Part shown: positions 18,223-56,433 of the stretch, in pieces
How positions within the stretch are numbered: the first letter of the stretch is position 1
Layout: every line of letters begins with the position of its first letter
NCBI GenBank assembly: GCA_003818605.1
Contig: RPQS01000023.1
Coordinates: 321-64,320, forward strand
From: Candidatus Zhuqueibacterota bacterium
GTDB taxonomy: Bacteria > Electryoneota > RPQS01
Direction: 5' to 3'
DNA length: 64,000 nt
Made by a program: the position numbers and the translations under genes
Notes under the pieces: model-generated
The model's input: only the letters and a program-made list of their open reading frames with translations
Databases searched by the model: none
What the model was told of the DNA's origin: nothing

Positions 18223-18306
18223 TGTCGCAATTCCGTTATCTTTTCAATGGCCTTCGCCGGACATTCCTTAATGGAAAAAGGGCTTCATCACAGAAACCCT
18301 TATCCT

Positions 18307-18370
18307 TGGCGGCGCGACCGGGATTCGAACCCCGGATACTGTTTCCAGTTTCTACGCGTTCCAAGATACG
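18307..18370 (-). pseudogene. tRNA-derived 3' fragment, copy 1 (anticodon-arm-like, long variable arm, T-arm, acceptor 3' strand plus CCA); degenerate, no foldable 5' half
   Basis: Minus strand reads ...CTTGGAACGCGTAGAAACTGGAAACAGTATCCGGGGTTCGAATCCCGGTCGCGCCGCCA. The T-loop TTCGAAT is present, but the T-stem has a mismatch or an 8-nt loop. I could not build a D-arm or a matching acceptor 5' strand upstream. Confidence 0.5.
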
Positions 18371-18520: not shown

Positions 18521-21500
18521 CTATTTGATCAGAAGCATTTTCCCGATTTTCGAGAAATCACCCGCATTCATGCGCACCCAGTACATCCCGGACGGAAGAT
18601 TGCGCGCATCATACAGGATTCGGTGGCGGCCGGGCGCCATCATTCTGCTCACGGGCCGCGCGACTTCCTGTCCCATGATATTAAAGAGAATCAGCTCGAC
18701 GAAGCTCTCTTTCGGAACATCGAAACTCAGGGAAGTCGCCGCGTTAAACGGATTGGGATAGTTCTGGTGTAGAGCGAATTCCGTGGGCAGAGACAATGGA
18801 TCGTCCGCGGAACTGACGACACTCAGGTCAACGCGAAGCGTATATGGACTGCCGACGGCGTTATACGTGATGACCAGATTCGAGACAAGTTCCCCGAGAC
18901 TATCCAGCGCGCTCGTTTGAACCGTAATCGTTGCCGATTGATTCGGATTCACTACGCCGGACGCCGGATGGATCGACAGCCATTCGCTGGTGTCAACAAT
19001 GGAGAAATTCAACGGGCATTGGCCGTTGGAATTCCGGATCGTGAAGGTATCTGAAACCGCCACACCCTGAAAGGCCATCAGCGGCATGGATGTTCTGCTA
19101 AGCTGCGCCACAGGGGCGCGCAGTCGAATATCCCGTTGCGTGTCGGCGCCTTCTGAAACTACGACGCCGGCGACTGTCGAATCGCAATAATGCATGTGAT
19201 CGAAGTTGATCGCATATGTGCCGGGATCGAGGCCCAGCCGGTAATGCCCGGTTGAATCCGTGAGAACCGTGTCTGCTGAACCCGTGGCCCAGATGCGGGC
19301 GTTGACTATCGGCTGATTGTTGCCGAAGCTGCCGACAAAACCGGCGACTCCACTCGGAGACTGCAGACCCCAAATTATCATGTCGTCGAAGAAAAAGCCC
19401 ATGTAGTTGGGCACGGACGGGTCCGTACTGAATTCGAATCGGAACATCGGAACTTGACCCATCAACTGGCCGATCGGAATGACCGTATATTGCCATTCGA
19501 ATTGCACATGACCGCTCCAGGCGGGTTGTCCGCCCATGAATGTGTTCACCGTATTCATGGATGCGACATTGTACGGATTTTGCGATGGAGTGAGAACCGT
19601 CCAAGTTTGTCCTGCGTCTACGCTGGCTTTAAAATTGCAGCCGTCGTAATTCAATTCCGAATCGAACCGGAACCAGAATTCCACGGTTGCCGTCGGGCTT
19701 TGCACAATCTGATTGGGGATGAAATCCAGTTTGTAGTCCACGCTGTTCGCGTAGTTCGCACTCATGCCGGTGCCCCACATATTTGCACCGCCATGCGGCG
19801 CGGGAGCTGAAGCGTTTGTCGGCGCTCCCCATGACCAGCCGCCGGTCGCGCCGGGTATCCATCCGCCGTCGTCCATTTCAAAATCGTTCACATAGCTGGG
19901 ATTTCCAACTGTAATGGTCGCAGATCGCGTTGGTCTGCCCCAATAGGGGGCATTATAAGGCCGGATCACATAGGTCTGAAGCCCTACCGGAGCCTGCACA
20001 TGCGTGAATGTCTGCATACCTGCGGCAACCAATCCCAGTCGCATTCCGGTCGTCATCGCTCCCAGCCAGATTTCCACGCTGTCTATAGGGGATGGATTTC
20101 CTTGCGTGTCCAGTGTGGGGTCCGTCCATGTCAGAACCACATTGGGTGGTGTGTAAACGCCGGACAAATTCGTGCAGGGCTGCGGGACTCCTGCTACAAC
20201 CTCCGCCCCCCAAATCGTCAGGTCGTCAATGAAGAATCCGGAATAATGCGTCGAGCTGTTGCTGCCGAACTCAAACCGGAACATCGGAACCTGACCCATG
20301 AACTCACCGATCGGAATCACACAGTACTGCCATATTCGCGGAGTGGTTCCGGCCCACGCCGGTTGACCGCTTAAGCAGGGCGTGGACGTGCTGACCGACG
20401 CAAGATTGTAATTTCCTTCCGTGGGAGTCAGAATCGTCCAGGTGGAACCGCCGTCCAGGCTCGCTTTGAAATTGCAGCCGTCATAAGTCGCTTGCGAGTA
20501 GTAATAGAACCAGAATTCCACCGTTGCCGTAGGACTGGTAACCACCAATCCGCTGTCCAAATCCAGCTGCCAGCAGGCACTCGCGGTATAGTCTGCAAAT
20601 AATCCTGTTCCGACGCAGTTCGTTCCGCTGTGCGGTGCAGGAGCATTCGCATTTGACGGTGTTCCACACGCCCAGCCGCCCTCCTGCTGCGGTTCCCATC
20701 CGCCAATACCCGCTTCGAAATTGTTGAAGTAACCCGGACTGCCGACCGGTAGTTCTATCGAAGTCGGCGCACCGTAATACCCATCGTTAAGCGGGCGGAT
20801 TGTATAGGTATTCAGACCGATGGGAGCATTCTGATGCGTGAAGGTTTGTGCGCCCTGAACGACTCTTCCGATCATGCTCCCTGTTCCGGCTTCGCCAAGC
20901 CAGATTTCAACGGAGTCTATGGTAACCGGATTCCCGTGAATGTCCTGAGTCGGATCCGTCCACGTAAGCATTAGGTCGGGCGCTGTATATAGTCCTACTA
21001 AGTTCGTGCATGGCAGTGGAATGCCCGCCTGTTGGCCGGCACCCCAGATGATTAAGTCGTCGAAGAAGAAGCCGGGGTAGGTGTTCGTTGAGGCGTTGGT
21101 GGCGAATTCAAACCGGAAGATCGGTACCTGTCCCAAGAATTCGCCAATCGGCACCACACAGTGTTGCCATGTTCGCGGCGTCGTTCCCGCCCATGCCGGC
21201 TGACCGGTCATGCACGATCCCGTTCCCATAGAAGCCAGATTATAGGCGGCTTCCGTGGGTGTTAGAATATCCCACGTTGCACCATTGTCAATACTTGCCT
21301 TGAAGTTCGCACCGTCGTATGTAGACGATGAGTAATACGAATGCCAGAATTCGATGTAAGCATCTCCACTCGTAACGGCTAAGCCGGCGTTCAGATCCAA
21401 CTGCCAGCAGGCATTGTTGGCATAATCCCCGAACAAACCGGTGCCCCAGAGGCTTACTCCACTATGAGGCGCCGGGGCGTCAGCTTCGGTCGGCGTACCC

Positions 21501-23608
21501 CAAGACCAACCGCCGGTTTCGGGAGTCGCAATCCAATTGCCGTTATCGCTTTCAAAATCGCTGTAGTATCCCGGATTTCCGACCAACAGCGCGACCGACA
21601 CGGGGCTGCCGAAATAGTTGTCGTTTCGCGGGCGAATCGTATAGGTCTGGAAGCTGATGGGAGCGTTTAAATGAGTGAACGTTTGCGTGCCCGCAATCAC
21701 GGATCCTAAAAACGTTCCGGTGCTGACGGAGCCGAGCCATACTTGCACGCTGTCAATTGCCAGCGGATTTCCTTGGGTATCAACGGTCGGATCCGTCCAG
21801 TTGATGACCACGTTCGGCTCAGAATATGACGCGGTGACGTTGGTGCATGCCGTTGGAATCCCACCCTGCTGGCTGGCGAGTCCCCAAATCGTGAAATCGT
21901 CGAAATAGAAACCGGGGTATGTGTTTGTGGTGGCGTTCGAAGCAAATTCGAAGCGGAAAATCGGTACTTGTCCGGCGTAGTCTCCAATTGGGATCACGCA
22001 AAATTGCCATGCATGCGGTGTTGTTCCGACCCAAGCCGGCTGCCCGGTCATGCACGATCCCGTTCCCAATGCCGCGAGATTGTATCCGCCTTGTGTAGGT
22101 GTGAGCACTGTCCAGGTCGCGCCGTTATCCACACTGATCTTAAAGTTGCATCCATCATAGGTGGCCTGCGAATAGAACCAGTGCCAGAATTCCACAGTCG
22201 CCGCTTCGCTGCTGATGACCATGCCTAAATTCAGATCCAACTGCCAGCACGCGTTGTTGGTGTAGTTGCCTGTCAGATACGTGCCCCAGACATTGGGAGT
22301 ACTGTGCGGAGTTAATCCTGTCACTCCCCAGGGAATTCCCCATCCCCAAGCATCGGTGGCTGGAGTGGCCGTCCACTGTCCGTTGTCCGTGTCGAAATTG
22401 TTGCTATAACCGGGTGTGCCGACTTGAATAGGAACTGTCACTGACGCCCCGTAATAGGGATCAATAAACGGGCGTATACTGTAAGTCAGGTTCCCGACCG
22501 GCGCATTGACATGAGTGTAAGATTGCGCTCCGGGGCCAACGGAACCGAGCAGCGTACCGGTGCCGGCTGAACCAAGCCAGATCTCCACGCTTTGAATTGT
22601 CACCGGATTCCCCTGCGTATCCAAGGTCGGATCTGTCCACGTGAGGATTACATCCGGATCAGAAAAAGCAGCAGCCAAATTCGTGCACGGCTGCGGAATT
22701 CCCGTAGCACGGGCAAATTCAATAGCCAGGCCGTCAAACGGTTGAAAACCCGTGGTGTTGCACACATAATTTAGAGCTGCAGATCCTGCGGTTCCATTGG
22801 ATTGGATACCGATGGTATGCGTGTTCGTACATGCGGTGGCCGGGCGGGTAACCGTATTATACTGAAGTTTGATGTTGCCGTTCTGATAAAGAATCGCTTC
22901 AAACTTCAGATAGATATTCGGGCAGCTTGTCGAGTACCAGCCGATGCCGTCGTATTGTATTACGAAATAGTCGCCGAAATTACGGTATCCGAGAATAACG
23001 GTATCGGTTCTTCCGCCGCGAACTTGATGCAAATCATCCCACAATACCGCGATCATCGGACCCGCTACAACTGAAGCGGGAAGACAAGCATTGCTTAGTG
23101 ATGTGGCGGTTGTCGTAAACTCCAGAAAACCGTTCGTGGCAACGCGTACGCAATCATATGTTGCACCGTAAAATGGAAAAGGAAAACCAATAGGCAGCTT
23201 CTGCCGCGAATAACCGTCATCAACGCTTGTGAAACCCGTTAAACCGCAGATCCATGTGGCTTCCGGATCGTCTCGTAATTCGACCCACTCGTAAGGGACA
23301 TTATCCGGCGGAACGTTGTCGCGGAAAACGTACTGAAATGCATCCGGCCCGCCCTGATTGTCCAATGACCCGCCGTGATCTCCATCATTTTCCAAACGGC
23401 CGTCCAGTTCTGCATACAGTTCCTTCTCAACATCGGTCAAATCAAGACCCAGTTCCAGTTTGTTCCGGAATGTTAGAAATTGTTCTTTTTCGGCCGGCGA
23501 AAACACGGAGGATAACAGCGGATCCGATGGAGATGCAAATGCGCCAACCGAATAGAGCATTAGCACAGTAATTCCGACTGCAAAAAGGCAATTGACAAAC
23601 CGTCTCAT
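18521..23608 (-). CDS. 1695-aa modular T9SS cargo protein (cell-surface or secreted; function unknown)
   Basis: Signal peptide. Four tandem roughly 280-aa modules, then a carboxypeptidase-regulatory-like domain. C-terminal YPNPFNAATSLSFDVP...GMYWVRM...KMLLIK is a T9SS CTD. Confidence 0.9.
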   Translation of the reverse strand: MRRFVNCLFAVGITVLMLYSVGAFASPSDPLLSSVFSPAEKEQFLTFRNKLELGLDLTDVEKELYAELDGRLENDGDHGGSLDNQGGPDAFQYVFRDNVPPDNVPYEWVELRDDPEATWICGLTGFTSVDDGYSRQKLPIGFPFPFYGATYDCVRVATNGFLEFTTTATSLSNACLPASVVAGPMIAVLWDDLHQVRGGRTDTVILGYRNFGDYFVIQYDGIGWYSTSCPNIYLKFEAILYQNGNIKLQYNTVTRPATACTNTHTIGIQSNGTAGSAALNYVCNTTGFQPFDGLAIEFARATGIPQPCTNLAAAFSDPDVILTWTDPTLDTQGNPVTIQSVEIWLGSAGTGTLLGSVGPGAQSYTHVNAPVGNLTYSIRPFIDPYYGASVTVPIQVGTPGYSNNFDTDNGQWTATPATDAWGWGIPWGVTGLTPHSTPNVWGTYLTGNYTNNACWQLDLNLGMVISSEAATVEFWHWFYSQATYDGCNFKISVDNGATWTVLTPTQGGYNLAALGTGSCMTGQPAWVGTTPHAWQFCVIPIGDYAGQVPIFRFEFASNATTNTYPGFYFDDFTIWGLASQQGGIPTACTNVTASYSEPNVVINWTDPTVDTQGNPLAIDSVQVWLGSVSTGTFLGSVIAGTQTFTHLNAPISFQTYTIRPRNDNYFGSPVSVALLVGNPGYYSDFESDNGNWIATPETGGWSWGTPTEADAPAPHSGVSLWGTGLFGDYANNACWQLDLNAGLAVTSGDAYIEFWHSYYSSSTYDGANFKASIDNGATWDILTPTEAAYNLASMGTGSCMTGQPAWAGTTPRTWQHCVVPIGEFLGQVPIFRFEFATNASTNTYPGFFFDDLIIWGAGQQAGIPLPCTNLVGLYTAPDLMLTWTDPTQDIHGNPVTIDSVEIWLGEAGTGSMIGRVVQGAQTFTHQNAPIGLNTYTIRPLNDGYYGAPTSIELPVGSPGYFNNFEAGIGGWEPQQEGGWACGTPSNANAPAPHSGTNCVGTGLFADYTASACWQLDLDSGLVVTSPTATVEFWFYYYSQATYDGCNFKASLDGGSTWTILTPTEGNYNLASVSTSTPCLSGQPAWAGTTPRIWQYCVIPIGEFMGQVPMFRFEFGSNSSTHYSGFFIDDLTIWGAEVVAGVPQPCTNLSGVYTPPNVVLTWTDPTLDTQGNPSPIDSVEIWLGAMTTGMRLGLVAAGMQTFTHVQAPVGLQTYVIRPYNAPYWGRPTRSATITVGNPSYVNDFEMDDGGWIPGATGGWSWGAPTNASAPAPHGGANMWGTGMSANYANSVDYKLDFIPNQIVQSPTATVEFWFRFDSELNYDGCNFKASVDAGQTWTVLTPSQNPYNVASMNTVNTFMGGQPAWSGHVQFEWQYTVIPIGQLMGQVPMFRFEFSTDPSVPNYMGFFFDDMIIWGLQSPSGVAGFVGSFGNNQPIVNARIWATGSADTVLTDSTGHYRLGLDPGTYAINFDHMHYCDSTVAGVVVSEGADTQRDIRLRAPVAQLSRTSMPLMAFQGVAVSDTFTIRNSNGQCPLNFSIVDTSEWLSIHPASGVVNPNQSATITVQTSALDSLGELVSNLVITYNAVGSPYTLRVDLSVVSSADDPLSLPTEFALHQNYPNPFNAATSLSFDVPKESFVELILFNIMGQEVARPVSRMMAPGRHRILYDARNLPSGMYWVRMNAGDFSKIGKMLLIK
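19361..22702 (-). repeat. four tandem approximately 840-nt (about 280-aa) intragenic repeat modules
   Basis: Modules start at about aa 303, 583, 861 and 1139. Each opens G(I/V)P.(P/A)CTN......P.....WTDPT and contains ACWQLDL, YDG(C/A)NFK, GQPAW and QVP(I/M)FRFEF. Confidence 0.8.
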
Positions 23609-24178: not shown

Positions 24179-24190
24179 AACTTGTATGAC

Positions 24191-24254
24191 TTGCGGAGAG
24201 ACGGGGATTCGAACCCCGGATACTGTTTCCAGTATGCACGCCTTCCAAGAGACG
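24191..24254 (-). pseudogene. tRNA-Ser-like 3' fragment, copy 2 (variable arm, perfect T-arm, acceptor 3' strand TCTCTCC-G); no 5' half
   Basis: Minus strand reads ...CGTCTCTTGGAAGGCGTGCATACTGGAAACAGTATCCGGGGTTCGAATCCCCGTCTCTCCGCA. The 6-bp variable-arm stem ATACTG/CAGTAT and the T-arm CGGGG-TTCGAAT-CCCCG are type-II (Ser-like) tRNA features. The expected GGAGAGA acceptor 5' strand is absent upstream, and the anticodon-like loop has only 6 nt. Confidence 0.6.
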
Positions 24255-24651: not shown

Positions 24652-24996
24652 TCAGGCAATTATGATCCAAAGAACCTCCCTCCATGTTCTCGCCTCGTCC
24701 CCAGTCGTAGTCTGAGGAGCTACAAGGCCGAGACTCGTTGTTTGTGCTGGTTTCTTACTTAGCATCGTCGATACAAGTGTCGGCCAGGTGAGTCCAACAT
24801 AAAAAGAGCCATATGTACTCCTTGCACCAAGCACGTTTGCAAGTACACCGGCCGTGCCTATAAATGCAATTGTGATACTCGAATAGAATACCCAGTTCGA
24901 GATTCTAATTCCTTTCGTTCTTGCCTTGTAAAGTCGAATCACTTCTGGTGCGATTGCACCGAGGGCTCCGAATAGAAAAATAATCCAGTCCCACAT
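24652..24996 (-). CDS. small 3-TM membrane protein; last gene of the HK operon
   Basis: 114 aa with three hydrophobic helices. Strong GGAGG lies 7 nt upstream, embedded in the end of the preceding gene. Confidence 0.7.
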   Translation of the reverse strand: MWDWIIFLFGALGAIAPEVIRLYKARTKGIRISNWVFYSSITIAFIGTAGVLANVLGARSTYGSFYVGLTWPTLVSTMLSKKPAQTTSLGLVAPQTTTGDEARTWREVLWIIIA

Positions 24997-25008
24997 TTGT
25001 CAACCTCC

Positions 25009-25674
25009 TTAGAATATTTGGAGATCTTTCGAGATATGTGACTTAAAGTGAAGGAGATTCCATTCTATAGTGAACCCATATCCCGGTCGTAGTGTTCGCC
25101 TTATCTTAATATTGTTGCATATCTTACCGCGCCAAACGTCATGCAAAAGGTGCCGATATCCAATTCTAACGCTTCTAGCGGCTTCTTGGCATGATACATT
25201 TTCGGATATCATGCGGTGCAAGCCTATTTGAGCAGATCTGAGAAGAGCAACTTGGAAGTCCCTATGTTTGACGTCATTGATGCCAAGCATGAAAACATCA
25301 TCATACCCGAAAAAGCCTCTGTCTTTGTATACCTCAATGAACTTTCTCCCAAGACTCTTTGCAGCATGGCATGCTATCGTATAGAGTACTGACTTGTTCG
25401 AAAGTACTTCCATGTCTATGACGCCGACTACTGACTCTGTTTTGAACATCAGACTACATCCACAGAGGCACCCATGGCCATAAAAAGCGAGAATGCCCGC
25501 CTCCTCCTTCAGATCACGCAACAGATCCAAGTGGTTATCGAGTGCTTGGCCATTAAGGTTAACAACGTGTGTTTCTACGCCCCGCGCATCTAGTGCCATC
25601 TGAATCTCGCTGACTACTTCTTCAAAGAGGGGATAGTTTACTATTTGACTGTCAAAAATAATAACTGCGTGCAT
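25009..25674 (-). CDS. minimal caspase-fold (CHAT/peptidase C14-like) protein
   Basis: The order beta-strand HAVIIFDS, then ILAFYGHG (candidate catalytic His), then VLYTIACHAAKS (candidate catalytic Cys about 35 aa later), then GFFGYDDVF...QEAARSV follows the CHAT/caspase-hemoglobinase layout. Motif-level only. Confidence 0.55.
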   Translation of the reverse strand: MHAVIIFDSQIVNYPLFEEVVSEIQMALDARGVETHVVNLNGQALDNHLDLLRDLKEEAGILAFYGHGCLCGCSLMFKTESVVGVIDMEVLSNKSVLYTIACHAAKSLGRKFIEVYKDRGFFGYDDVFMLGINDVKHRDFQVALLRSAQIGLHRMISENVSCQEAARSVRIGYRHLLHDVWRGKICNNIKIRRTLRPGYGFTIEWNLLHFKSHISKDLQIF

Positions 25675-25688
25675 TGTATCATATTCCT

Positions 25689-26291
25689 TTAGACTGATTC
25701 GTTTTGTTCATCTTCAGGATGTGACAATTCCAAAAACATTGCATAAAAGGTCAAACGGAACTGCTTGCCAATCTCAGATCCACTTTCAATCTCTCTGATC
25801 AAATCATCCGCTGTGTACTTGTTCTCACCTAACTCAATTATGGGATTATCTCCGTCATCTTTTACGCGTTTACTCCACTCCCTGAGTGCTCGGAGTAATG
25901 CATCGGTCTCAGCTCTCTCTCCTAATTTGCTATTAATAGTCTCCAACAGAACATGCATTTCCTCCGGCTTCTCTATAAAACCATCAGCACCCAAGTTGCA
26001 CGCGCGTTTTGCATACTGATAATGTCCGAACGCTGTCATCACAATGACAACAGCGCGCTCGTCTCCTCTCGCAGTTTCGCTTTTTCGAAATTGTTCAAGA
26101 AGATCAAGACCCTCTGAATCGCTCGGCAGTCGTATGTCAAGCAATACGACATCATAGGTCTTTTGCTCAAACGCTCTCACTGCCTCTTCCTTAGTACTGC
26201 AACCTATAACATCAAACTTCTCTTCAACAAAATAGTTCGTAATGGCTTTAAGAAGACCTAGCTCATCCTCAATGACAAGGAGACTTCTCAT
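25689..26291 (-). CDS. response regulator: receiver domain plus an approximately 75-aa C-terminal domain of unknown type
   Basis: LLVIEDE, DVVLLDIRLP (phospho-acceptor Asp), VIVMTAFG and GADGFIEKP. I prefer the ATG at 26291, which has GGAGG 7 nt upstream and lies 1 nt after the HK stop. The track start at 26384 would overlap the HK by 92 nt. Confidence 0.85.
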   Translation of the reverse strand: MRSLLVIEDELGLLKAITNYFVEEKFDVIGCSTKEEAVRAFEQKTYDVVLLDIRLPSDSEGLDLLEQFRKSETARGDERAVVIVMTAFGHYQYAKRACNLGADGFIEKPEEMHVLLETINSKLGERAETDALLRALREWSKRVKDDGDNPIIELGENKYTADDLIREIESGSEIGKQFRLTFYAMFLELSHPEDEQNESV

Positions 26292-26292
26292 T

Positions 26293-29115
26293 TCAAACCT
26301 CCGTATGAATCGGAATAACCAATTCAAACTCTGCTCCGTGTGGTACAACTGACAATGCCCGCACAGTACCTCCGATTGAAGCAACTGTGCGACGAACGAA
26401 AGCTAAGCCCATGCCTGAGTGTCCCGAGGCCAATGGGTGCAATGTGAAATTCTCAGCAAAAATCAGATCAAGATCGGGAATACTAGACGAAAATCCCACG
26501 CCATCGTCTACGAAATGTATTTCAGCATTTGTTTCTTTCATAAATACTTTTACTGTTATTTTACCATTCTTGTTCAAGTGATCCAAAGAATTTATAAAGA
26601 GATGATAGAACATATGAACGATTGCATTCTCTGAACCTCTAACTAATCCTCTAAAACCCTCCTCAACTTCTATCTGTACGTTGATCTCCTTCGCTTTGAG
26701 CTGCTCGTTAACAATTTCAATAGCTTGTTCCACGCACTGCAGAAGATTAACATTCGATTGTCCATCTGATATATCGTGAAGACTCCGAGTTGCCTCCACC
26801 GCAAGATCCTTTATTTGTTGTGTGTGCTTAAAGATGTCAGACAAAGCATCACGATACTTAGATTCGTCTTTCAGATATATTTCTTTATGGTCCTGCAGCG
26901 CACATGCATTAGTCATGATGACCGCAAGAGGAGTTCTTATCATGTGCATCATAAAGAGACCATATTCCGCAAGAACCGCCTGCCGTCTAGTGCTGGCAAT
27001 CTTCTGTTCCTCTTCAATTGATCGTATACTTCCGAATAGCGCCGTACGCCCGTGATAGGAGTTGATTGACCGCGATACTGATTCCCCTTGAAAGGTCGAC
27101 CCATCCTTCTTTTTGTAATACAGGATTGACTTCTCTTCTTGCTTATCATACTTTTGTCCTCTTACCTTCTTCTTCATTGTATCCAGCCAATGTTCGAAGT
27201 TCATTGTCTTTTCTGCCGAAACCAGCGATGTTGCCTCGATTTTCTGAAGTTCTTCCTCTGTAAAACCGAACAACTCTCTAAATGCATTGTTAGTAAAAGT
27301 AAATGTGAAGCGATCATGATCACTCTCCTGTATTATGTAAATTGGCGCCACGCACATGTTCCATAGATCTTCTGTTTTCGACATATCCCAGATCACACCC
27401 TCATAAGCGTATGGTTTTTGGTTGGGATGCTTCAGGCTATGTGAATACAGGTTAACCTTCTTGTCTATCCTCTGCGCATTTAGGTGTTGCGTAACAATCT
27501 CCAGCATCTCTCCTTTGCCAAGATCATCAAGCTGGAAATCGTCGTAGAATCGAAGAAACTTCTGAATCTTGTGTTTAACAACATCATTCGGCGTGCTGTA
27601 CCCCAGAATTCTAGCAAAGTTTGAGTTGCAAAACGTGATTACACCGAAGAGGTCTGTCCGAAAAAAACCCAGGTCAAACTGATCATACATAGGTGAAGTC
27701 GAAGTCATGGTGCCACGGATGCGCAATCCAAAAGACTCTCGGGTATATGTAGCATCAATGCGGGCGAAAAAAGGACGATCACTCTTAGCTTCGGATAATT
27801 CGAAATACCTCATACCTGCAATGAAATTCTCAACTCGTTGTGATGGCGATCGGCTCAAGATTTGTAAAAAAAGTTCATATTGTTGCTCGCTTGCCCAAAG
27901 GCTACTGAATAACAGCTTTCCCGTGACGTCGGTGCCTTTCAAATGAAATTGGCTAAGGAAGGACTTATTGCAATGCAAAATCTTCCCGTGGAGATCGGTT
28001 TCAAACACGGCAACTGGAATTTCGTCCATCAACAGTTCGTTCGTTTTCTTGGCGCTGTATACAATATGATAACTCAGCGGAAGCAACCAAAGAACAGCAA
28101 AGAGAATAGCAGCCGTCAAAGAAATCACTTCTTCAAGACAATTGTGTCGGTATCCATAGAGTTTTGACCATAGAACGATGATTAGAACCACGATGTTAAC
28201 AAGAAGGAAAAAAGATCCACTAAAATGTTTCCAGTTCCTGTTCAACCAGTTACTATTAATCATGTCTCGGATTCTGGTCCCCACACCGAATATCCTGTTC
28301 CTCTCGCTTGCTGGTTGAAAACGGAGGAGGAGCGCTAGAAAGAACACAAAAACCTGTCGTAACACAGTCCCAGATGGACATGCATCGAACCTTCCGCAGT
28401 TGAAGTCGTATGCGTGTTCAAAATGCCGCGACAACCATAAATCGTTTCTTTTATCCAACCACAGTTTCATTCGTGTCAAAATAGCGATCTTCTTTTCCAA
28501 AGATATGGAAATGTGGTACAGACCGACACCTCCTAGTATGTTTTCTTCATCTGCTGACAGTTCATGGACATTAGCTGTCTTCGTTGCATACGCGATTCCG
28601 AACGGACACGTGAATAGCGCTGACGATACTGTAATTGGTGATTCGCGTCGATCGCGCTCCAACATTTCGCGCATGACTAGATGTTGGTACTGTTCGTAGG
28701 GACGAAGTTTATGAAATACCGGTTTCAGAATGAGCTTCTCAACAAGGAACAACAAGAATATCGAAACTAAGAGAACCACGATTATAATTGCCAGTTTCTT
28801 TACAATCACTTTAATATCGGTAACGCGCGTCAAGCCTGGATTGGCTATTGTTACCAATTTGGAAACAGACCACCCGGCAGTAAGCATCCATAAAAAAACT
28901 GGATCGAGGAGTCTGTATGCAAAATCCAGCCGGTCTGTGTGCGCAACCTCCAACAACACGAGCCAGCTCTTGAACTGAGGGAATAGGATTAGAACCGCTA
29001 TAAGTACGATCGAGAATCCAGCCACAGAGAAGACGAACTTGGTGTCAAATTGCGTTCTCTCCATGATCGCCACGAAGTAATGTCGAAACCTACTATGTGT
29101 TTTAGGAGTACTCAT
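26293..29115 (-). CDS. membrane-bound sensor histidine kinase (polytopic N-terminal domain, PAS repeats, HisKA, HATPase_c)
   Basis: H-box MHMIRTPLAVI, N-box HLFINSLDH, G1 FVDDGVGF and G2 GHSGMGLAFVRR. About 330 aa of N-terminal TM region carry weak PAP2-like motifs (KPVFHKLRP, CPSGT, SKLYGYRHNCLE). Confidence 0.9.
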   Translation of the reverse strand: MSTPKTHSRFRHYFVAIMERTQFDTKFVFSVAGFSIVLIAVLILFPQFKSWLVLLEVAHTDRLDFAYRLLDPVFLWMLTAGWSVSKLVTIANPGLTRVTDIKVIVKKLAIIIVVLLVSIFLLFLVEKLILKPVFHKLRPYEQYQHLVMREMLERDRRESPITVSSALFTCPFGIAYATKTANVHELSADEENILGGVGLYHISISLEKKIAILTRMKLWLDKRNDLWLSRHFEHAYDFNCGRFDACPSGTVLRQVFVFFLALLLRFQPASERNRIFGVGTRIRDMINSNWLNRNWKHFSGSFFLLVNIVVLIIVLWSKLYGYRHNCLEEVISLTAAILFAVLWLLPLSYHIVYSAKKTNELLMDEIPVAVFETDLHGKILHCNKSFLSQFHLKGTDVTGKLLFSSLWASEQQYELFLQILSRSPSQRVENFIAGMRYFELSEAKSDRPFFARIDATYTRESFGLRIRGTMTSTSPMYDQFDLGFFRTDLFGVITFCNSNFARILGYSTPNDVVKHKIQKFLRFYDDFQLDDLGKGEMLEIVTQHLNAQRIDKKVNLYSHSLKHPNQKPYAYEGVIWDMSKTEDLWNMCVAPIYIIQESDHDRFTFTFTNNAFRELFGFTEEELQKIEATSLVSAEKTMNFEHWLDTMKKKVRGQKYDKQEEKSILYYKKKDGSTFQGESVSRSINSYHGRTALFGSIRSIEEEQKIASTRRQAVLAEYGLFMMHMIRTPLAVIMTNACALQDHKEIYLKDESKYRDALSDIFKHTQQIKDLAVEATRSLHDISDGQSNVNLLQCVEQAIEIVNEQLKAKEINVQIEVEEGFRGLVRGSENAIVHMFYHLFINSLDHLNKNGKITVKVFMKETNAEIHFVDDGVGFSSSIPDLDLIFAENFTLHPLASGHSGMGLAFVRRTVASIGGTVRALSVVPHGAEFELVIPIHTEV

Positions 29116-29285: not shown

Positions 29286-29671
29286 CGTTCGAATTATAAT
29301 ACAGCGATGTAACACATCGGCGTACTCGCTGTTATTTATTAAGAATGTACAAATAATAGAATATTTTGTCAAGTTAACGTGCAGAACCGTCCGCTATGTC
29401 AATGTGCATTGCTATAACACGAAACAGATTGGCACAGAGTTTCACGCATCCCTTTTGCTGCGCTTTTGAATGCTCGCAGTTGTTTAACAAAGCCGAAGCG
29501 ATGTGGGCTCCTTTCTGTGCATCGTTAGAACAAATAGTACACAATGCGTTACAGATTTAGTGTGTTGTTTGAGGTCGCAAGTTACGGATCTTACGCTGCC
29601 ATTTGCTTGGATGATGGTAATGAAGTTGTCCGCGAATGCCTACCCCTGAATCACTCTGCTTCGCGACCACC

Positions 29672-29718
29672 GATGCCCTATTAGCCGTCGCTATGATGGT
29701 GATGGCACCGAAGGTGCG
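29672..29718. repeat. approximately 46-nt repeat unit, copy A
   Basis: GATGCCCTATTAGCCGTCGCTATGATGGTGATGGCACCGAAGGTGCG. Contains the hairpin GCACC-GAA-GGTGC. Confidence 0.7.
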
Positions 29719-29754: not shown

Positions 29755-29800
29755 GATGCCTTACGGCCGTCGCTATAATGGTGATGGCACCGAAGGTGCG
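29755..29800. repeat. approximately 46-nt repeat unit, copy B; 43 nt downstream of the DUF262/DUF1524 gene stop on the minus strand
   Basis: GATGCCTTACGGCCGTCGCTATAATGGTGATGGCACCGAAGGTGCG. The last 34 nt (GCCGTCGCTAT-R-ATGGTGATGGCACCGAAGGTGCG) are identical to copy A except one position. Confidence 0.7.
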
Positions 29801-29842: not shown

Positions 29843-31591
29843 CTAATCCTGAGTTCGAGACGGCGCTTCAAATTCGCTTTCGTTGAATCCAAGCTTTTTG
29901 GCTACCTTCTCGACGATCTTCGCGGCCCGGTCACGCATGAAACTTCTGTACATGTTGTAGTTCAGTTGCGATCGATCTATGCACGCTCTGGCAAGCTCGC
30001 CGTCGTTCACGTCCTCGAAGTATTCCTTGGGGTGCTGATTGCTCTTGTTCTGGTTCTTCCCCTTCGCAAGAATCCAGTAATTAGCAAAGTGATTGATCTC
30101 TTCCTCAGAGAATCGATCCATTTCTCTCAGCTTCGAGCGAGGAAAGATATGATCGATCTCGGGGGCGTTGGCCCAAAAATGTGTCTTGGCGCCCGACAAT
30201 TGCTGGACCAGCGATAGCGCGAGCGCTGGGTTGCGGTTAAGTAGATCATCATTAATTCCCGTTACTCGTTCCCAGTATCTTGAGTATTCTATCGCTTTCT
30301 CCAAGGGAAAGATGGGATCAGCCCGACTCGCTAGCGGCTTCAGAGCTTCATTTATGAATTTGTTAAGCCTACTGTCAGCGTAACGTGAGAACGGCGCACA
30401 GAAGCCAAATAGATAGAGCGCTTTCCTGAATGGTACAGTTCCATTGTTCGGCACAGTATGTCCGGTCGTGTTCGCCAGGTAGTAGACGAAGGGGACCAGA
30501 GTGTGATACCCCTTAAGGAGGCGACTGCTCACACACCAGCATTGTGTTTGAACAAAGTCGACAGATGACTGAATCGCTCTGCACACCCGATCGTAGTTCT
30601 TCTTGATCGCATCGATATTGTCTTTATGCCTTAGCTTGTCCACGTCAAATTTTGTACCCAGGCCCGCCACGGCAAACAAGCATCTCATCACAAAGTCGGT
30701 ATCAAGCTGAAATGAATTCCCTTCGTTGATTTTCTTGACGAACTCTGGAAGTGCAACGGCTGACTCGCGCCATGAAAGCTTCAGCATGCTGAAAATCAGA
30801 TCCGAGCGATTGAGCGGTGTTCCCTGTCGGTTGATACGAACGAACACCTCCAATACATCGGATTCACTCTTTCGCTCAGGTTTATCACTAGGGAGATTCT
30901 CATCTATGACAGACGCTTTTAGTATGTTCTCGTCTTTGCTAAGAGCATCGTCCATCATCTGAATGTTCGCTCGCAGTCGAAAGACGTCATCATCGCCAAG
31001 CGCTAGGTCGCTCTTCATCTTGCTGATCAGTCGCTCCTTGCTAATGGCGCCCAGTGTATAAATGTCCATAACTTTCAGAAACAATACCTTCCTATCATTC
31101 GCCTCCTCATCATCAGAGTCCGCATGAACATCGACTTGGGTCTGCACCCTTGCTTTCTCTCGCGATTCTGCATTCTTTTGCTGTGCCTCTGCGTCTGCCA
31201 GGAAACGGAAAGAGTACTTCACCTCACGAAAGTCCTTGCCAGGCTTGCCGCTCAAGACATCGAAGTAAAGGTGTCTCCCATTATGTGTACCGAACAGCCC
31301 GATGTACAAGGATTGGAGGCGTTGCTGGCCGTCAAGGACAATTCGCAGCCGCTTGTTCTCGGTATTGCTGTGGAAAACATACGAGGTGTCATCTCTGTAA
31401 TCCTGATCGAACGTGCGGTACTGTATGTCGTCATATGTCTCCCATTCGAGAATGATTCCGATCGGATATGAACGCATCACGGAATCAAGAAGCATTTGGA
31501 CTTTGTCTTCAGTCCATACAAAGTCGCGCTGAATAGCCGGGAGGACTACTTCGTTGTTCTTGATTTGGTTCAGAATCGAAAAGATGCTCAT
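29843..31591 (-). CDS. GmrSD-like type IV restriction enzyme (N-terminal DUF262 ParB-like NTPase, C-terminal DUF1524 HNH-like nuclease)
   Basis: VLPAIQRDFVWTEDKVQMLLDSVMRSYPIGIIL (DUF262 signature) and EIDHIFPRS...ANYWILAKGKNQNKSN (DUF1524 His-Me finger signature). Confidence 0.85.
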   Translation of the reverse strand: MSIFSILNQIKNNEVVLPAIQRDFVWTEDKVQMLLDSVMRSYPIGIILEWETYDDIQYRTFDQDYRDDTSYVFHSNTENKRLRIVLDGQQRLQSLYIGLFGTHNGRHLYFDVLSGKPGKDFREVKYSFRFLADAEAQQKNAESREKARVQTQVDVHADSDDEEANDRKVLFLKVMDIYTLGAISKERLISKMKSDLALGDDDVFRLRANIQMMDDALSKDENILKASVIDENLPSDKPERKSESDVLEVFVRINRQGTPLNRSDLIFSMLKLSWRESAVALPEFVKKINEGNSFQLDTDFVMRCLFAVAGLGTKFDVDKLRHKDNIDAIKKNYDRVCRAIQSSVDFVQTQCWCVSSRLLKGYHTLVPFVYYLANTTGHTVPNNGTVPFRKALYLFGFCAPFSRYADSRLNKFINEALKPLASRADPIFPLEKAIEYSRYWERVTGINDDLLNRNPALALSLVQQLSGAKTHFWANAPEIDHIFPRSKLREMDRFSEEEINHFANYWILAKGKNQNKSNQHPKEYFEDVNDGELARACIDRSQLNYNMYRSFMRDRAAKIVEKVAKKLGFNESEFEAPSRTQD

Positions 31592-31816: not shown

Positions 31817-31860
31817 TGCCCTCTGCTATCGTCGTCGCTATGGTGCTGATGAAGGTACGA
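31817..31860. repeat. diverged third copy of the approximately 46-nt repeat; about 50 nt downstream of the 1478-aa gene stop
   Basis: TGCCCTCTGCTATCGTCGTCGCTATGGTGCTGATGAAGGTACGA aligns with copies A and B through TGCCCT, CGTCGCTATG, GTGxTGATG and AAGGTxCG. Confidence 0.5.
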
Positions 31861-31907
31861 GTGGGCAGCAGTGATCGGAAATACGGGTTGACATGGAGTC
31901 CACGGCA

Positions 31908-34900
31908 TCATACCCTGTTGTCTTTTCGTGTCCGCCGATTCGCTGACTTACCTGATACTCTTGTGGGCACAGATAGTTGTTGCTCACCATCCCGTGTTCG
32001 CAGAAGTGCCCAACGTTCGCCTTGAATGGTGCCATCCTTCAAAGAATAGATTCCACTCATCTCTATTCTGCCTGGCCACTTCTCGTGTTGTCCAGTAACA
32101 ATCTCCTTTCCACCAAACATTACCCAGACGAGCGCATACCCAGTCCGATCGAGGAAATCAATCAGAATGTCTTTTCTTGCCAGTAAGCAGCTTCTCCCAA
32201 ATCCAATTCCAGACGGATCCTTGAAGACAATATCGCCGGAACCACTGACAAACCTGCCGTCCTCCCCGTTCCACAAGAGGCTCATGTTATCGATAAGCCA
32301 TTTACATGGAATGTAAATGTGAAATCCTGCTTCAGTAGAGCAGTCGTAGCCACCACTTTCATTGCTATAGGTTTCTGTAGTCTGAAGAATCGGGCATAGC
32401 CGATTAGAGTCCGGCAAATCCTCCCACCCTTGGTGTTCATAATATTCAGTCTGGTAGAAGTCAGCGCATGAAGACCAGAAGAACTCACCCAAATAGACGT
32501 TGTGATACTCGGACGGACTGTCCAATACTGGTCCCCAAAACGTAGATTTTGTCTTCGCCCATTTGACAAATTTGTCAACATCATTTTTGTGAACGATCCT
32601 ACTCAAAATATGATACCACAGGCTCCGTTGTTCTCTTCCACGCATCCTCGCCTCTTCAAGCTCAGCGTCTTGCCAGCCTGGTGATCCGTACAGGCACAAC
32701 CACTGATTGCTATCGTGTGGGTCGCTAACTTCGATAAAGGACTCTACGCGTGGGCTATTATCACCAAGGTGGATCCAAGTTGCATCGTCAAGTTCTGGCC
32801 GCCAGTCAGAAAAGCTGTCGGGCATCCACCAAAGAGTGACGTCATCGTCTTCGTTAAGAGGTTTTCCCCTCTTAAGCACATGAGATGGATCAATGTCGCG
32901 ACCGTAGGTCAGTTGCCAGGGACCCTGGTACTCCTTTTGGGAACTTCCAAAGTGATCACCAATGTACTCGAAGTTGTCCGAAATGCGCGCAAGGATTTCT
33001 CTCAATGCAATCCATTGATATTTCTTGCCGATGCGTTCAACTTTATTTGCTTCGCGTCTCATAGACATTTGGTCGACCTGATCATCGAACCACCCGAACC
33101 GATCAGATGTCCACCCGAGATCAAGAACTCGTTTTATAACGAAACGCTGAATCTGTGAGAGGTCAAAGTAATTTGGCTCTTCATGTACAAGTTTAGATCC
33201 CAATGACATCCCTGATCCAATTATCCACTGATCGAACTTTTTGGAGATTTTTTGCGTATGCCTCAAAATCTTAACAGGGGTTCCGAGACGGCTCGCCGAC
33301 CAATTGGACATGTGGCCATTTGTACCGATCACGTACCTTGCGAAATCCCCAAAATCCATTACTGATCCATAGATTCCAAAAAAGCCCGGTGTCATTTTGC
33401 CGTTCTTTTCATGATCCTTCTTGATCGCTTCAATATTCTGTTCGCTGGGAATGGAAGGCCATTCGCTTTGATAAGGTGGATAGATAAGCAGCGGACAGAT
33501 ATCCAGATCCGGATTCACTTCGAAAGCTCTTTCCACAATTCCGCGAGCATAGTCACGCAGGAGAATGCATGGTGGTGGTGTTCCTTTCTCGAAAATCTGC
33601 TTGTACACATACACTGCGATGTTCTGCACCTCCACATTTTGCGGCCTACGCATGCAGCATCCGTAAGCAACAGCGTACAGCCGTTCAGAAACATATGGAT
33701 CGTTAACATTCTCAAACCGCTCTAAAAGGGGTTGAACGAGATCGAGCCGCGGCGTAAGCAGGCAGACCAGTGCTTTTGTTGCCTTATCGCGCAGGAATCT
33801 GTTCGATGATGTCAAAAACCAAGACAGAGTGGTTGCACCGAGAAATATAGACTCTTTGGACAGATGACTTTGATCCCGATCTGACCAAGCCCAACGAAGG
33901 AGTCGGTCAACTGGCGACTGAGTATCGTATAAGTGATGAATCGGAATTGTCCATGATCCATCTCGTTCTGCCATTTGCCTACTCACAAGACGATCATGCA
34001 GGAACTCCGCATTCAGGGGATGTTTTGGAACCACCGACAGCGTCAGGAGCGCCTTGCGCATATCTACTGAATCCTGCCTTGTGCCAAACTTACTAATGAT
34101 CCGCAGAGTCTCGTTAGTAACACTGCCTGGTGCGCGCGTCACAAGGCTATGAACAAGTGACGAGACAACCTTCCACTGCCTTGCACTAAGTGGAGCCAAT
34201 GCGATGAGATCTCGTCCCGTCCTTTCAGGAACCTGTGCTGAGAGGGCGTCAAGAAGTCCAGAGTTTCTATAGCACCAATTAGGATCAGTTACCATCGAAC
34301 CAAGCGTCATATCCTTAGCAAAGGACGATTTAGGATTATTTGCGTCCAAATGTTGATCGAGTAGACGGCTCGCTATAAGGTGATCTGCGAGCCGTTCGTA
34401 TGTGAAGCGCACGATATCAACGTGCTTGCCATCATTGTCTATTTTGTCCTCACTCAGCAGACCTTCAGCAATCAACTGGGTAAAAAGTGATTTGCTGTGC
34501 CCTAAACTCTGCAGTAAGCTAGCAAGGGCGGATTTTGCATCATCTCTTACCACCCACCGTCGCCCGTGCTCAATCATGATTGAAACCAATGCGTCAACCG
34601 CGCGGCGTACAATATTCTCTTTTTCGTCAAAATCGAGCCTGTCCGGACGTGCAAGGACGTCGTTCAGTTTATCAACGAAGAAGAACAGCAATTTCGTAAA
34701 GCCCTCAACACCCGACGGCATCGTTTCGAGCCCGGCCTTGTTAAGAGTCTCGCAAAAGAGCTTGAGGTAAAGTGGATTCGAGAATTCCGGGTTTAGGACG
34801 GGCACACTCGATGGCATAATCTTGTAATGGGCATAGAATACATCTGTCGCATCGAACTCAATGCCGGAGAATCCATAATGTGTAACGCACAGCAGCCCGT

Positions 34901-36344
34901 TCTTACGCAGATGCTCCGGAACGACTTCGTCGGCGTAGCCTGACCGAATACTCGTAGCTACCGTAACATGAGGATAATGTGCGATCTGTGCCAGAAAACT
35001 GCCCATGTATTTATGCCACATCATTCTGTTTTCGGGTCCCGGCTCGTTCAGAGCATCGACGAGAATCATGGCACGCGTTCCATTAGCGATCGCATATGTC
35101 TCGAGTGCCCCTAAGAACTCATCCGTGGATCCTGAGTAGTCAAGTAACTGGAGAGCGGTTGTCCAAGGATTCGTTTGATATGCGAATTGTTGTCCGAGAA
35201 GGAGGATCGTGGGTATGCCCTCTCTCATCCGCCGATCCGCGACATCACAAAGTAAATGCGTCTTGCCTGTACCAGCCTCTCCGAGAAGGCATAGAACTCT
35301 CTGGTTTACCGCGCGACTACTATCGCTGGATGCAAGCTCGTAGATGTCATCAGCTGCATTCGCCAAAGATGACAGGAGTTGGCGTCCGTATCCATAATCA
35401 AGCTTCTTGGTACTGTCTTCAGTATCTTTCTGACTCCCCATATCTAAGTCCGTAATTGTACGGTGCAGTTGCCATCCAGTGTCACTAACGGTTTCGGCCT
35501 TGCTGGCAATATCTTCCCAAGGTGATTGGACAAGGTCCGGCTTTATTACAGCCTCAAGTAATTTTGTCAGAGTCTGGCATGCGGACACAAGATCGGCAAA
35601 CTCTTTCGTTCCGGCTAAGGGGTTCGTATGATAACCATTAGTCACATCGTACGATGCTTTCCGGAACTTCTTGAAACTACGTTCAAGCGATTTCAAGTAA
35701 ACAGGTGTCTTCCCGAGGGCATCGAAAACTTCAGTGATTGAAACATTGACGTTTAGCTCTGGTGTATATCGCGGTCCAACATCTACCTTGACTGCATTCA
35801 AGCGCCGGCGAAACCATTCGTCCGAGAAAAGCTCTTTGTCGAACCAGAGGCGCGCTTTTCCGACATGAACTGGTAGTGCAAGACGAGAAAGAATCTCACT
35901 CTGCCCCCAGTAATGGAATTTCACCACCATTTTTTTGTCGCACGCCCAGCCTTCCCACTTTTGGACGTGATCGTTCCATCGCTCCATAAACGATCTGGCG
36001 CGCGAAGTGCGTGCGTCCGGCCGATCTACAGGCAGACAGATGCAGTAATCTGTCAAATTAGGGTGCTTATCAAGTGCTGTCTTCACTGATTCATCGATTT
36101 GACTCCACCTACCGTTGTCAGGGGGAGTTTCGAAGAATTTGGCTTGCCAGGCTTTTTCCGCACCATCCTGTAAAAGTGCGTATCCCTCAACTCCACCATC
36201 GGGAGCCCCAACGCGCACAAAGTTCGTTCCTGCAGGGAATGGTTCCAGAGATGCAAGCTGACAGCAAAGCTCCTCGAAAGCGGTTTGCTGTGAGCCACGT
36301 AGTGGGCGGAGGTGGGACCAGTTTAGCGCATTTTGTAAAGACAT
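31908..36344 (-). CDS. 1478-aa STAND/NACHT-type P-loop NTPase with an N-terminal Mrr-like PD-(D/E)xK nuclease domain (Avs/bNACHT-like antiviral protein)
   Basis: The N-terminus FEELCCQLA...VGAPDGGVEGY...AWQAKFF fits the Mrr-cat pattern (FE..., D-GG-h-E, QxK). Walker A is LLGEAGTGKTHLL and Walker B is AMILVDALNE. This is followed by NPLYLKLFCE, typical of NACHT helical modules. About 900 aa of C-terminal region remain unassigned. Confidence 0.7.
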   Translation of the reverse strand: MSLQNALNWSHLRPLRGSQQTAFEELCCQLASLEPFPAGTNFVRVGAPDGGVEGYALLQDGAEKAWQAKFFETPPDNGRWSQIDESVKTALDKHPNLTDYCICLPVDRPDARTSRARSFMERWNDHVQKWEGWACDKKMVVKFHYWGQSEILSRLALPVHVGKARLWFDKELFSDEWFRRRLNAVKVDVGPRYTPELNVNVSITEVFDALGKTPVYLKSLERSFKKFRKASYDVTNGYHTNPLAGTKEFADLVSACQTLTKLLEAVIKPDLVQSPWEDIASKAETVSDTGWQLHRTITDLDMGSQKDTEDSTKKLDYGYGRQLLSSLANAADDIYELASSDSSRAVNQRVLCLLGEAGTGKTHLLCDVADRRMREGIPTILLLGQQFAYQTNPWTTALQLLDYSGSTDEFLGALETYAIANGTRAMILVDALNEPGPENRMMWHKYMGSFLAQIAHYPHVTVATSIRSGYADEVVPEHLRKNGLLCVTHYGFSGIEFDATDVFYAHYKIMPSSVPVLNPEFSNPLYLKLFCETLNKAGLETMPSGVEGFTKLLFFFVDKLNDVLARPDRLDFDEKENIVRRAVDALVSIMIEHGRRWVVRDDAKSALASLLQSLGHSKSLFTQLIAEGLLSEDKIDNDGKHVDIVRFTYERLADHLIASRLLDQHLDANNPKSSFAKDMTLGSMVTDPNWCYRNSGLLDALSAQVPERTGRDLIALAPLSARQWKVVSSLVHSLVTRAPGSVTNETLRIISKFGTRQDSVDMRKALLTLSVVPKHPLNAEFLHDRLVSRQMAERDGSWTIPIHHLYDTQSPVDRLLRWAWSDRDQSHLSKESIFLGATTLSWFLTSSNRFLRDKATKALVCLLTPRLDLVQPLLERFENVNDPYVSERLYAVAYGCCMRRPQNVEVQNIAVYVYKQIFEKGTPPPCILLRDYARGIVERAFEVNPDLDICPLLIYPPYQSEWPSIPSEQNIEAIKKDHEKNGKMTPGFFGIYGSVMDFGDFARYVIGTNGHMSNWSASRLGTPVKILRHTQKISKKFDQWIIGSGMSLGSKLVHEEPNYFDLSQIQRFVIKRVLDLGWTSDRFGWFDDQVDQMSMRREANKVERIGKKYQWIALREILARISDNFEYIGDHFGSSQKEYQGPWQLTYGRDIDPSHVLKRGKPLNEDDDVTLWWMPDSFSDWRPELDDATWIHLGDNSPRVESFIEVSDPHDSNQWLCLYGSPGWQDAELEEARMRGREQRSLWYHILSRIVHKNDVDKFVKWAKTKSTFWGPVLDSPSEYHNVYLGEFFWSSCADFYQTEYYEHQGWEDLPDSNRLCPILQTTETYSNESGGYDCSTEAGFHIYIPCKWLIDNMSLLWNGEDGRFVSGSGDIVFKDPSGIGFGRSCLLARKDILIDFLDRTGYALVWVMFGGKEIVTGQHEKWPGRIEMSGIYSLKDGTIQGERWALLRTRDGEQQLSVPTRVSGKSANRRTRKDNRV

Positions 36345-38186: not shown

Positions 38187-38193
38187 GCTTGGC

Positions 38194-43577: not shown

Positions 43578-43594
43578 GGCGGATATTATTTCCG

Positions 43595-53605: not shown

Positions 53606-53890
53606 ATGGAAACTCGTGACCAAACACTAAGTGCCCTTTTACTTGCGCGTAAGCAAATCATGCGCGGGTACCGCACCAACGAACGTGGCGACATTCTATT
53701 TCGCTTTGATGACAGCGAAGGCGTTCGCCAGATCGAAGACGGCTTCTACCAGAACACAGAACTGGTAGCCGTCCAGGACTTTGCCGCTGCTCTGCGACAG
53801 GTCAAAAACATTATATTCAAATTAAGGAATTCAAATTACTATGACAACACCATTACAACAGGTTCAACCCGAATACAAAACACAAGATAG
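53606..53890 (+). CDS. hypothetical small protein (94 aa)
   Basis: ORF with protein-like composition directly upstream of the primase-helicase gene, overlapping it by 50 nt if that gene starts at 53841. Confidence 0.5.
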   Translation: METRDQTLSALLLARKQIMRGYRTNERGDILFRFDDSEGVRQIEDGFYQNTELVAVQDFAAALRQVKNIIFKLRNSNYYDNTITTGSTRIQNTR

Positions 53891-56396: not shown

Positions 56397-56433
56397 CGCT
56401 GTCTTCGCTATCTAAATCGAGCATTAACACGCA

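Follow-up and report, generated by a model that had tools for sequence, protein, structure and literature searches.

A histidine kinase, a response regulator with a new tail domain and a caspase-fold protein as a candidate signal-gated protease module in a bacterial defence island

Response regulators can gate proteolysis, as do RssB and CpdR, adaptors for ClpXP on specific substrates, and in bacterial gasdermin operons a protease gene adjoins a gene for a small membrane-active protein. Detocs consists of a TPR-histidine kinase (DtcA), a stand-alone receiver (DtcB) and a receiver-PNP effector (DtcC) (bioRxiv 10.1101/2023.01.24.525353). CHAT proteases are known from SAVED-CHAT, type III CRISPR and CBASS (PDB 8tl0; bioRxiv 10.1101/2023.06.23.546230), and type IV Thoeris pairs a TIR protein with a caspase-like effector that is activated by TIR-made N7-cADPR (bioRxiv 10.1101/2024.10.24.620036). 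Here we describe a four-gene block in a 64,000-nucleotide stretch of contig RPQS01000023.1 from Candidatus Zhuqueibacterota bacterium (the window). It encodes a membrane histidine kinase, a response regulator whose receiver is followed by a small C-terminal domain that we call the coupler, a caspase-fold protein (P3) and a small membrane protein (P4). We read the locus, with a probability of about 0.5, as a signal-gated caspase-like protease module in which a helical coupler and a stand-alone P3 of ~220 residues are served by interchangeable sensors. That it represents an undescribed signalling-to-protease architecture is well supported by the comparative data; the literature searched held no description of a kinase-regulator-caspase module, which is absence of evidence only.

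The module is like Detocs in having a phosphorelay with a predicted non-transcriptional, potentially cell-damaging output and in the modular swapping of its parts; one relative (locus L020) has a TPR-type kinase, and the window copy lies in a defence island. It differs in having one receiver gene, with no second 'buffer' receiver, and in that this receiver is fused to a non-catalytic domain of ~65 residues while the enzyme is a separate gene. Its effector is caspase-like, whereas Detocs effectors are PNP, nuclease or hydrolase, and coupler and effector are also paired with sensors that have no phosphorelay. SAVED-CHAT, the best structural match of P3, is, as we propose for P3, a caspase-fold protease activated by upstream signalling, but there the SAVED sensor binds cyclic oligonucleotides and is fused to the protease, whereas P3 is minimal (221 residues) and has a separate coupler. 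Type IV Thoeris also uses a stand-alone bacterial caspase-like protease as effector for a separate sensor gene; our locus has no TIR, and its control is predicted to be protein-protein, through a phosphorylated receiver. Sequence comparison with type IV Thoeris consisted of PADLOC and Pfam only, without matches. As with RssB and CpdR, the phosphorylation state of a receiver would govern a protease and not a promoter, but the protease here is a dedicated caspase-fold protein from the adjacent gene, and the domain that would link the two is new. An earlier note on this DNA had compared the locus to gasdermin systems, and a protease gene does stand beside a small membrane protein gene; however, P4 is a 114-residue polytopic protein with no gasdermin or other family match and is not conserved with P3, and nothing in the locus resembles gasdermin. 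Measured against canonical two-component systems, kinase and receiver are present and a known output domain on the regulator is absent.

The four genes (Table 1) are co-oriented and separated by 1, 14 and 12 nt, the regulator ATG lying 1 nt past the kinase stop. Shine-Dalgarno motifs GGAGG, AAGGAA and AAGGAGG stand directly 5' of the regulator, P3 and P4 starts, respectively. Open reading frames and motifs thus bear out the earlier note on the order, gaps and ribosome-binding sites of the block.

P3 belongs to a rare family, patchily distributed over ~25 lineages. HMMER, run exhaustively over 1.84 billion representatives, yielded only 20 remote relatives of 200-245 residues (E 1e-9 to 7e-4), while a word-indexed homology search with P3 gave only a self-match and a profile search of that database just 3 relatives. 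No relative was found in the viral, plasmid and phage collections IMG/VR, PLSDB and INPHARED. All loci compared below were reached through P3 homologues, using a 10-sequence alignment subset for the locus search. Upstream DNA could be read in 16 lineages, and in every one the gene directly before the P3 homologue ends in the coupler. The carrier is a receiver behind a kinase in 13 lineages, including the window, a PAP2-like/PAS sensor in two and a stand-alone protein in one. The order kinase, ~200-residue regulator, P3 is found in the window and in L003-L009, L010-13, L014, L015, L020, L023 and L025; because it recurs in 12 other lineages (locus GC 48-67% where measured), the arrangement is not a chance one. 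The kinases themselves are diverse, comprising cytoplasmic GAF/PAS arrays of 878-1536 residues, a 500-residue TPR kinase (L020) and the membrane PAP2/PAS kinase of the window, and all regulators of the kinase-type lineages have the C-terminal tail seen in the window. In the one-component loci L016/17 and L018/19, a PAP2-like/PAS membrane protein of ~620 residues lies directly 5' of P3 and carries the coupler at its C-terminus; in L022 the coupler is a stand-alone 74-residue protein whose gene runs 4 nt into the start of P3. The nearest relatives of window P3 (P0005 and P0003) come from loci with neither a kinase core nor a regulator. Since the coupler also occurs without kinase or receiver, always preceding P3, the invariant unit is coupler plus P3, and the phosphorelay is one of three routes feeding it. 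The kinase-to-regulator-to-protease logic proposed in the earlier note fits this conserved unit across lineages, but only three of the four genes that it had grouped into one module are conserved, P4 having no homologue.

The receiver residues E8/D9, the phospho-acceptor D52, T86 and K108 align with those of seven family regulators, and the PADLOC matches of the regulator (SduA, PDC-M60 and PD-T4-6) are weak and at receiver level only. The coupler follows the consensus W-L..P ... T-L..I..EIE.GT.FGK.QE..IY.LA. The tail of the window regulator (residues 130-200) and nine homologous tails had no match in Pfam, NCBIfam or PDB sequences, the Pfam run on these ten sequences returning noise only. A coupler hidden Markov model (HMM), built without the window sequence and scanned against 3,820 six-frame segments from the window and all other loci, matched solely genes directly upstream of P3 homologues, with E 4.5e-6 for the window regulator and ~1e-3 for the one-component sensors. 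The earlier note was therefore right about a canonical receiver with no known output, but the tail that it took for an orphan is a conserved domain that always precedes P3. The top PDB sequence match of the coupler profile was a 71-residue MAP3K15 chain (6v0m; E 0.12, not significant), which shows a similar W-L ... T-L..I..EI pattern. We take 6v0m to be a SAM domain, a lead only; no Pfam SAM model matched the coupler. The regulators of L008 (6666-7706) and L009 (3956-4996) are 346 residues long and have an additional N-terminal receiver-like region before receiver and coupler.

P3 had no match in Pfam (E ≤ 1), NCBIfam or PADLOC, and neither P3 nor its profile had a significant match in PDB sequence searches. 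The family motifs are vvFYGHGc.CG, KIVY.vACHSAK.LG (ACH(S/A)AK.LG) and YIGY. Of 25 distinct members, 24 retain the dyad Cys and 21 the His. Individual relatives weakly match clan CD families (Peptidase_C25 1.5e-4, C50 2e-3, CHAT 4.7e-3), the CHAT matches, in one relative only, and the C25 matches, in two, being sub-threshold. The AF2 model computed with the 20-sequence alignment reached a predicted local distance difference test score (pLDDT) of 90.5 and a predicted template-modelling score (pTM) of 0.88; a single-sequence model (pLDDT 40) was unusable. The model is an alpha/beta fold with a central six-stranded sheet, as in caspases and CHAT, with His67 and Cys102 closing strands 60-65 and 94-100, respectively. 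Foldseek placed SAVED-CHAT 8tl0 first (E 8e-5, TM-score 0.57), followed by caspase-4, caspase-1 and caspase-11 (E 8e-5 to 9e-4 overall), and in the viral library a giant-virus caspase ranked first (1e-4). P3 is thus confidently modelled as a caspase-fold (clan CD-like) protein with His67 and Cys102 where a catalytic dyad is expected, and protease activity is predicted. This agrees with the earlier note, which had seen a caspase/CHAT-like His/Cys dyad in the third gene; structure prediction, which it had said would refute the idea if the protein proved to have no protease fold, did not do so. In L005 (7929-8705), P0008, P0010 and P0012 the His is replaced by A, R, V or M, and P0012 lacks the Cys too. 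These relatives retain the CxCG motif, L005 retains the kinase-regulator-coupler context, and they may be pseudo-proteases. The alternative to a dyad, that the CxCG and CH motifs make up a zinc or redox site, was ranked lower, because divergent members keep only the His and Cys.

Pfam recognised three PAS domains, HATPase_c (E 1.4e-11) and a weak HisKA (E 7.6e-5, below the Pfam cut-off) in the kinase, which had no PADLOC match. Its H-box, MH(724)MIRTPL, offers His724 as the phospho-acceptor candidate, and the G1 and G2 boxes lie at 870 and 901. Hydropathy indicates ~5-6 transmembrane segments at the N-terminus. An alternative public gene call (L001 6716-9382) starts 52 codons later and gives 888 residues, but the 940-residue start, which includes the first transmembrane segment, is supported because the alignment with the L018 sensor begins at residue 33. 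Kinase residues 33-596 are 30% identical to this stand-alone PAP2/PAS sensor (E 5e-64), and the two one-component sensors (E 5e-64 and 5e-52) share 28-30% identity with the same region. In the window, the PAP2/PAS sensor known from the one-component loci is joined to a kinase/receiver relay. The Pfam PAP2 match has E 0.019 in the window kinase, 2.6e-5 in the L018 and 1.3e-4 in the L016 homologue, all below the gathering cut-off. PAP2 motif C1 (KX6RP) is intact (KPVFHKLRP, K131-P139); C2 reads PSGT (247-250) in place of PSGH, so its His is lost; C3 is S-K-x5-H324-x3-E against SRX5HX3D. The retention of phosphate-binding residues without the C2 His suggests, speculatively, binding of a lipid phosphate instead of its turnover.

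P4 has 2-3 transmembrane segments by hydropathy, in keeping with the small membrane protein of the earlier note, and a strong ribosome-binding site. It had no match in Pfam, NCBIfam or PADLOC, a homology search returned only P4 itself, and it is unrelated to all small proteins encoded after P3 in other loci. Six of those loci share a protein of ~150 residues after P3 with a C-terminal hydrophobic hairpin (PFVVLCLIA..RVGKEAWC); membership of P4 in this family was rejected by HMM and hhalign (probability 0.1%). Two others (L015 4638-4913 and L023 4646-4915) encode a ~90-residue protein ending in NFEF, L022 has a 54-residue open reading frame with two transmembrane segments downstream of P3, and at least four lineages (L007/L010-13, L016/17, L018/19 and L020) have no gene called there. 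The C-termini of the L015 and L023 proteins read ...GFS..(V/L)GA.(L/I)(V/I)N.S.S(V/I)NFEF, beta-rich with a terminal Phe, and recall the beta-signal of outer-membrane proteins. The presence of a small and often hydrophobic protein after P3 is thus common but not conserved, which fits a swappable effector or substrate but is no evidence for one; P4 is a possible substrate or effector outside the conserved core.

The block lies in a defence island, as the earlier note had proposed from GmrSD-like, STAND and DISARM genes; PADLOC identified HEC-05/GmrSD, Avs2 and a complete class 1 DISARM (Table 1). It contains the lowest 1-kb GC bins of the window, also as the note had it, but measures 43.4% and not ~37%, compared with 54.7% for the left flank and ~50% for the rest of the island. 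The sigma-70-like promoter candidate in Table 1 is to be read against a total of such sites in the region not above that of shuffled sequence. A tRNA-derived fragment beside the block, already seen in the note, is the 3' half of a tRNA-Ser(GGA)-like sequence and is likely an att (attachment-site) remnant at the island's left edge. ARAGORN found no intact tRNA in the whole window. An att partner or intact tRNA was sought to the right of the fragment and not found; instead, a second tRNA-Ser-like 3' half, ending in CCA, lies to the left (18300-18360, minus strand; 28/31 identical to the core 24195-24225), between an alcohol dehydrogenase gene and the gene for a 1695-residue protein putatively sorted by the type IX secretion system (T9SS). 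The tandem arrangement of two att-like remnants suggests that a single tRNA-Ser site was the target of serial integrations. The tail of the 1695-residue protein (18521-23608) is, judged by eye only, similar to the Por_Secre_tail (T9SS) sorting domain that Pfam finds in the proteins at 13237-16596 and 60763-63999. Such domains suggest that the host belongs to the Bacteroidota/FCB group. A 35-nt direct repeat occurs at 29684-29718, just downstream of the HEC-05 stop, at 29766-29800, overlapping the stop region, and at 31831-31865, past the Avs2 stop; copies 1 and 2 are 97% identical and the third 63%, and the repeat may be a shared terminator or cassette-boundary element. Between Avs2 and DrmC, a 248-residue open reading frame (36482-37228, minus strand) had no match in Pfam or PADLOC. 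An 851-residue protein in the 53841-57300 region contains DUF5906, which we take to be primase-like in integrative elements, and AT-rich short direct repeats follow at 56.4-57.3 kb. This protein, the repeats and the T9SS-sorted core-like genes further on (60.7-64 kb) suggest a right end of the island near 57-60 kb.

Table 1. Positions in the window of the four-gene block, its domains and residues, and the features around it.
Feature	Position	Strand	Size or residues	Basis or remark
Kinase gene	26293-29115	minus	940 aa	open reading frame
PAP2-like polytopic membrane input domain of kinase	28051-29115	minus	residues 1-355	hydropathy and motifs
Three PAS domains of kinase			residues ~356-706	
Kinase core			residues ~707-940	
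Response regulator gene	25689-26291	minus	200 aa	counted from ATG
Receiver (REC) domain	25917-26291	minus	Pfam match at residues 5-119	Pfam Response_reg, E 1.9e-21
C-terminal coupler domain	25692-25904	minus	~65-70 aa, residues ~130-200	family alignment
P3 gene (caspase-fold protein)	25009-25674	minus	221 aa	
Putative catalytic His67 of P3	25474-25476	minus		FYGH67G motif
Putative catalytic Cys102 of P3	25369-25371	minus		IAC102H motif
P4 gene (membrane protein)	24652-24996	minus	114 aa	
Sigma-70-like promoter candidate, TTGACA-17-TACATT	29344-29372	minus		~230 nt upstream of kinase start; consensus match only
tRNA-Ser(GGA)-like 3' half	~24190-24250	minus		anticodon loop to acceptor end
Two terminator-like hairpins after tRNA-Ser fragment	24178-24149 and 24099-24081			
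HEC-05/GmrSD	29843-31591			PADLOC
Avs2	31908-36344			PADLOC, 1545 bits
Complete class 1 DISARM (DrmC/B/A/MI/D)	37371-51018			PADLOC

In the signal-gated module that we propose, the coupler would sit on whichever protein delivers the signal. The membrane kinase of the window, with its PAP2-like lipid-phosphate-type domain and three PAS domains, would sense an envelope or cytoplasmic cue and autophosphorylate at His724, and the phosphate would pass to Asp52 of the regulator. The phosphorylated receiver would alter the state of the coupler, most simply via dimerisation, and the coupler would turn the protease on, either through induced proximity or through relief of an inhibition. Because dimerisation is a common mode of signalling for receivers and for PAS domains, and proximity is what activates caspases, we favour induced proximity as the mode of activation; an antitoxin-like inhibition and release is equally compatible with the data. 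The output would be proteolysis and not transcription, with the 3-transmembrane P4, encoded 12 nt downstream, as a candidate substrate or effector. A bolder form of this proposal, a novel bacterial immune or suicide module in which a minimal caspase is activated by induced proximity through a new adaptor of ~65 residues carried on a receiver, on a PAP2-like/PAS sensor or alone, we regard as doubtful.

The locus could instead be a conventional transcriptional two-component system, the tail being a novel small DNA-binding domain and P3 and P4 its regulated cargo. The helix, short linker and helix of the tail loosely resemble a helix-turn-helix (HTH), the small-upstream, larger-downstream layout of L022 is also typical of DNA-binding antitoxins and regulators, and ToxR is an example of a one-component transcription factor tethered to the membrane. 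However, the Pfam models of HTH, ribbon-helix-helix and winged-helix domains matched no coupler, even with E values of up to 5 allowed, and a PDB sequence search with the coupler profile retrieved no DNA-binding protein and nothing significant. The tail also lies at the C-terminus of a sensor with 5-6 transmembrane segments in two lineages, and its strict adjacency to P3 in 16 of 16 lineages, however different the inputs, is what one would sooner expect of two proteins that act as partners, so that transcriptional control appears improbable. We would also give long odds to a toxin-antitoxin-like pair, with P3 a constitutively toxic protease and the coupler an inhibitor or decoy substrate released by the sensors. 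The 4-nt overlap in L022 is a classic antitoxin-toxin layout and the coupler always precedes P3, but neither protein matches any toxin-antitoxin family and members without the catalytic His still have the coupler; the core partnership is the one we propose with its sign reversed, and current data cannot separate the two. Very improbable, in our estimate, is a P3 that is no protease at all but a pseudo-caspase scaffold or a modulator of the phosphorelay that targets the regulator, for instance as a phosphatase or connector. Four members do lack the His, the main subfamily conserves a CxCG beside the His and another His after the Cys, from which a metal or redox site could be built, and flavodoxin-like folds are among the weaker Foldseek matches. 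Yet conservation is highest at the dyad, P0003, P0005, P0020 and P0021 have lost the CxCG and kept His and Cys, and P3 also stands beside one-component sensors and a lone coupler, settings that offer it no phosphorelay to act on.

Several points weigh against a signal-gated protease module. Window P3 itself has no significant Pfam protease match and stays below the gathering thresholds of CHAT (PF12770) and Peptidase_C14, and its Foldseek TM-scores are moderate (0.45-0.57). With the catalytic His gone in four members, catalysis is not universally required in the family. P4 is lineage-specific, the coupler has been seen in loci found via P3 only, and contact between coupler and P3 is something we infer, as are catalysis, the direction of control, the substrates and the input signal; what the sequences show is the coupled gene order, the domains, the fold and dyad positions of P3, the synteny and the exchange of sensors over a constant coupler and P3. 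Some loci also have a housekeeping setting: L010-13 lies between dapA/dapB/HPPK and aldehyde dehydrogenase/ilvD, L018/19 between hemB and vWA genes, and L020 near moeA and an ABC transporter.

This setting bears on the role of the module, which is most plausibly conflict, defence or stress-triggered growth arrest. Anti-phage defence specifically, given the few loci sampled, is possible and would be put forward only tentatively. A different role, regulated proteolysis in envelope stress or development with the island position incidental, falls a little short of even odds. Besides the housekeeping neighbours, the PAP2-like/PAS input suggests lipid-phosphate or envelope sensing, the viral, plasmid and phage collections hold no relatives, and PADLOC found no defence component in the scanned neighbours in L003, L004, L016 and L020 (L018 was left out), its matches there being to generic TPR, REC or kinase-domain and candidate (PDC) models only. 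Conversely, the window copy sits inside the HEC-05/Avs2/DISARM island with a GC content that differs from both island and core, an HKD+Snf2 defence-type gene follows L005, an MNT/HepT pair lies near L010 and an IS481-type transposase at L016, and neighbours differ from locus to locus in a family that is rare and patchy, as accessory genes would be. The defence-island association claimed in the earlier note is thus seen in the window and in L005; other loci lie among housekeeping genes. Its expectation that no known system would match was borne out, PADLOC having no model for P3, P4 or any P3 relative; in PADLOC-DB v2.0.0 none of the 20 P3 family members had a meaningful match.

If the signal-gated reading is true, the locus would define a new class of two-component output, in which a receiver controls a dedicated caspase-fold protease via a new adaptor domain. 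It would equally add a new class of input to bacterial caspase-like effectors, which to our knowledge have so far been found driven by nucleotide second messengers or CRISPR complexes. The constant pair of coupler and protease under three sensor formats offers a testable hypothesis for how such a protease is switched, and the PAP2-like/PAS sensor suggests that the module may be triggered by the state of lipid phosphates or of the envelope. A defensive role would make this a system missed by current annotation tools. Should the immune-module reading be true, prokaryotes would have their own equivalent of the activation of caspases by adaptors, and a caspase-like protease would for the first time be seen under the direct control of His-Asp phosphotransfer.

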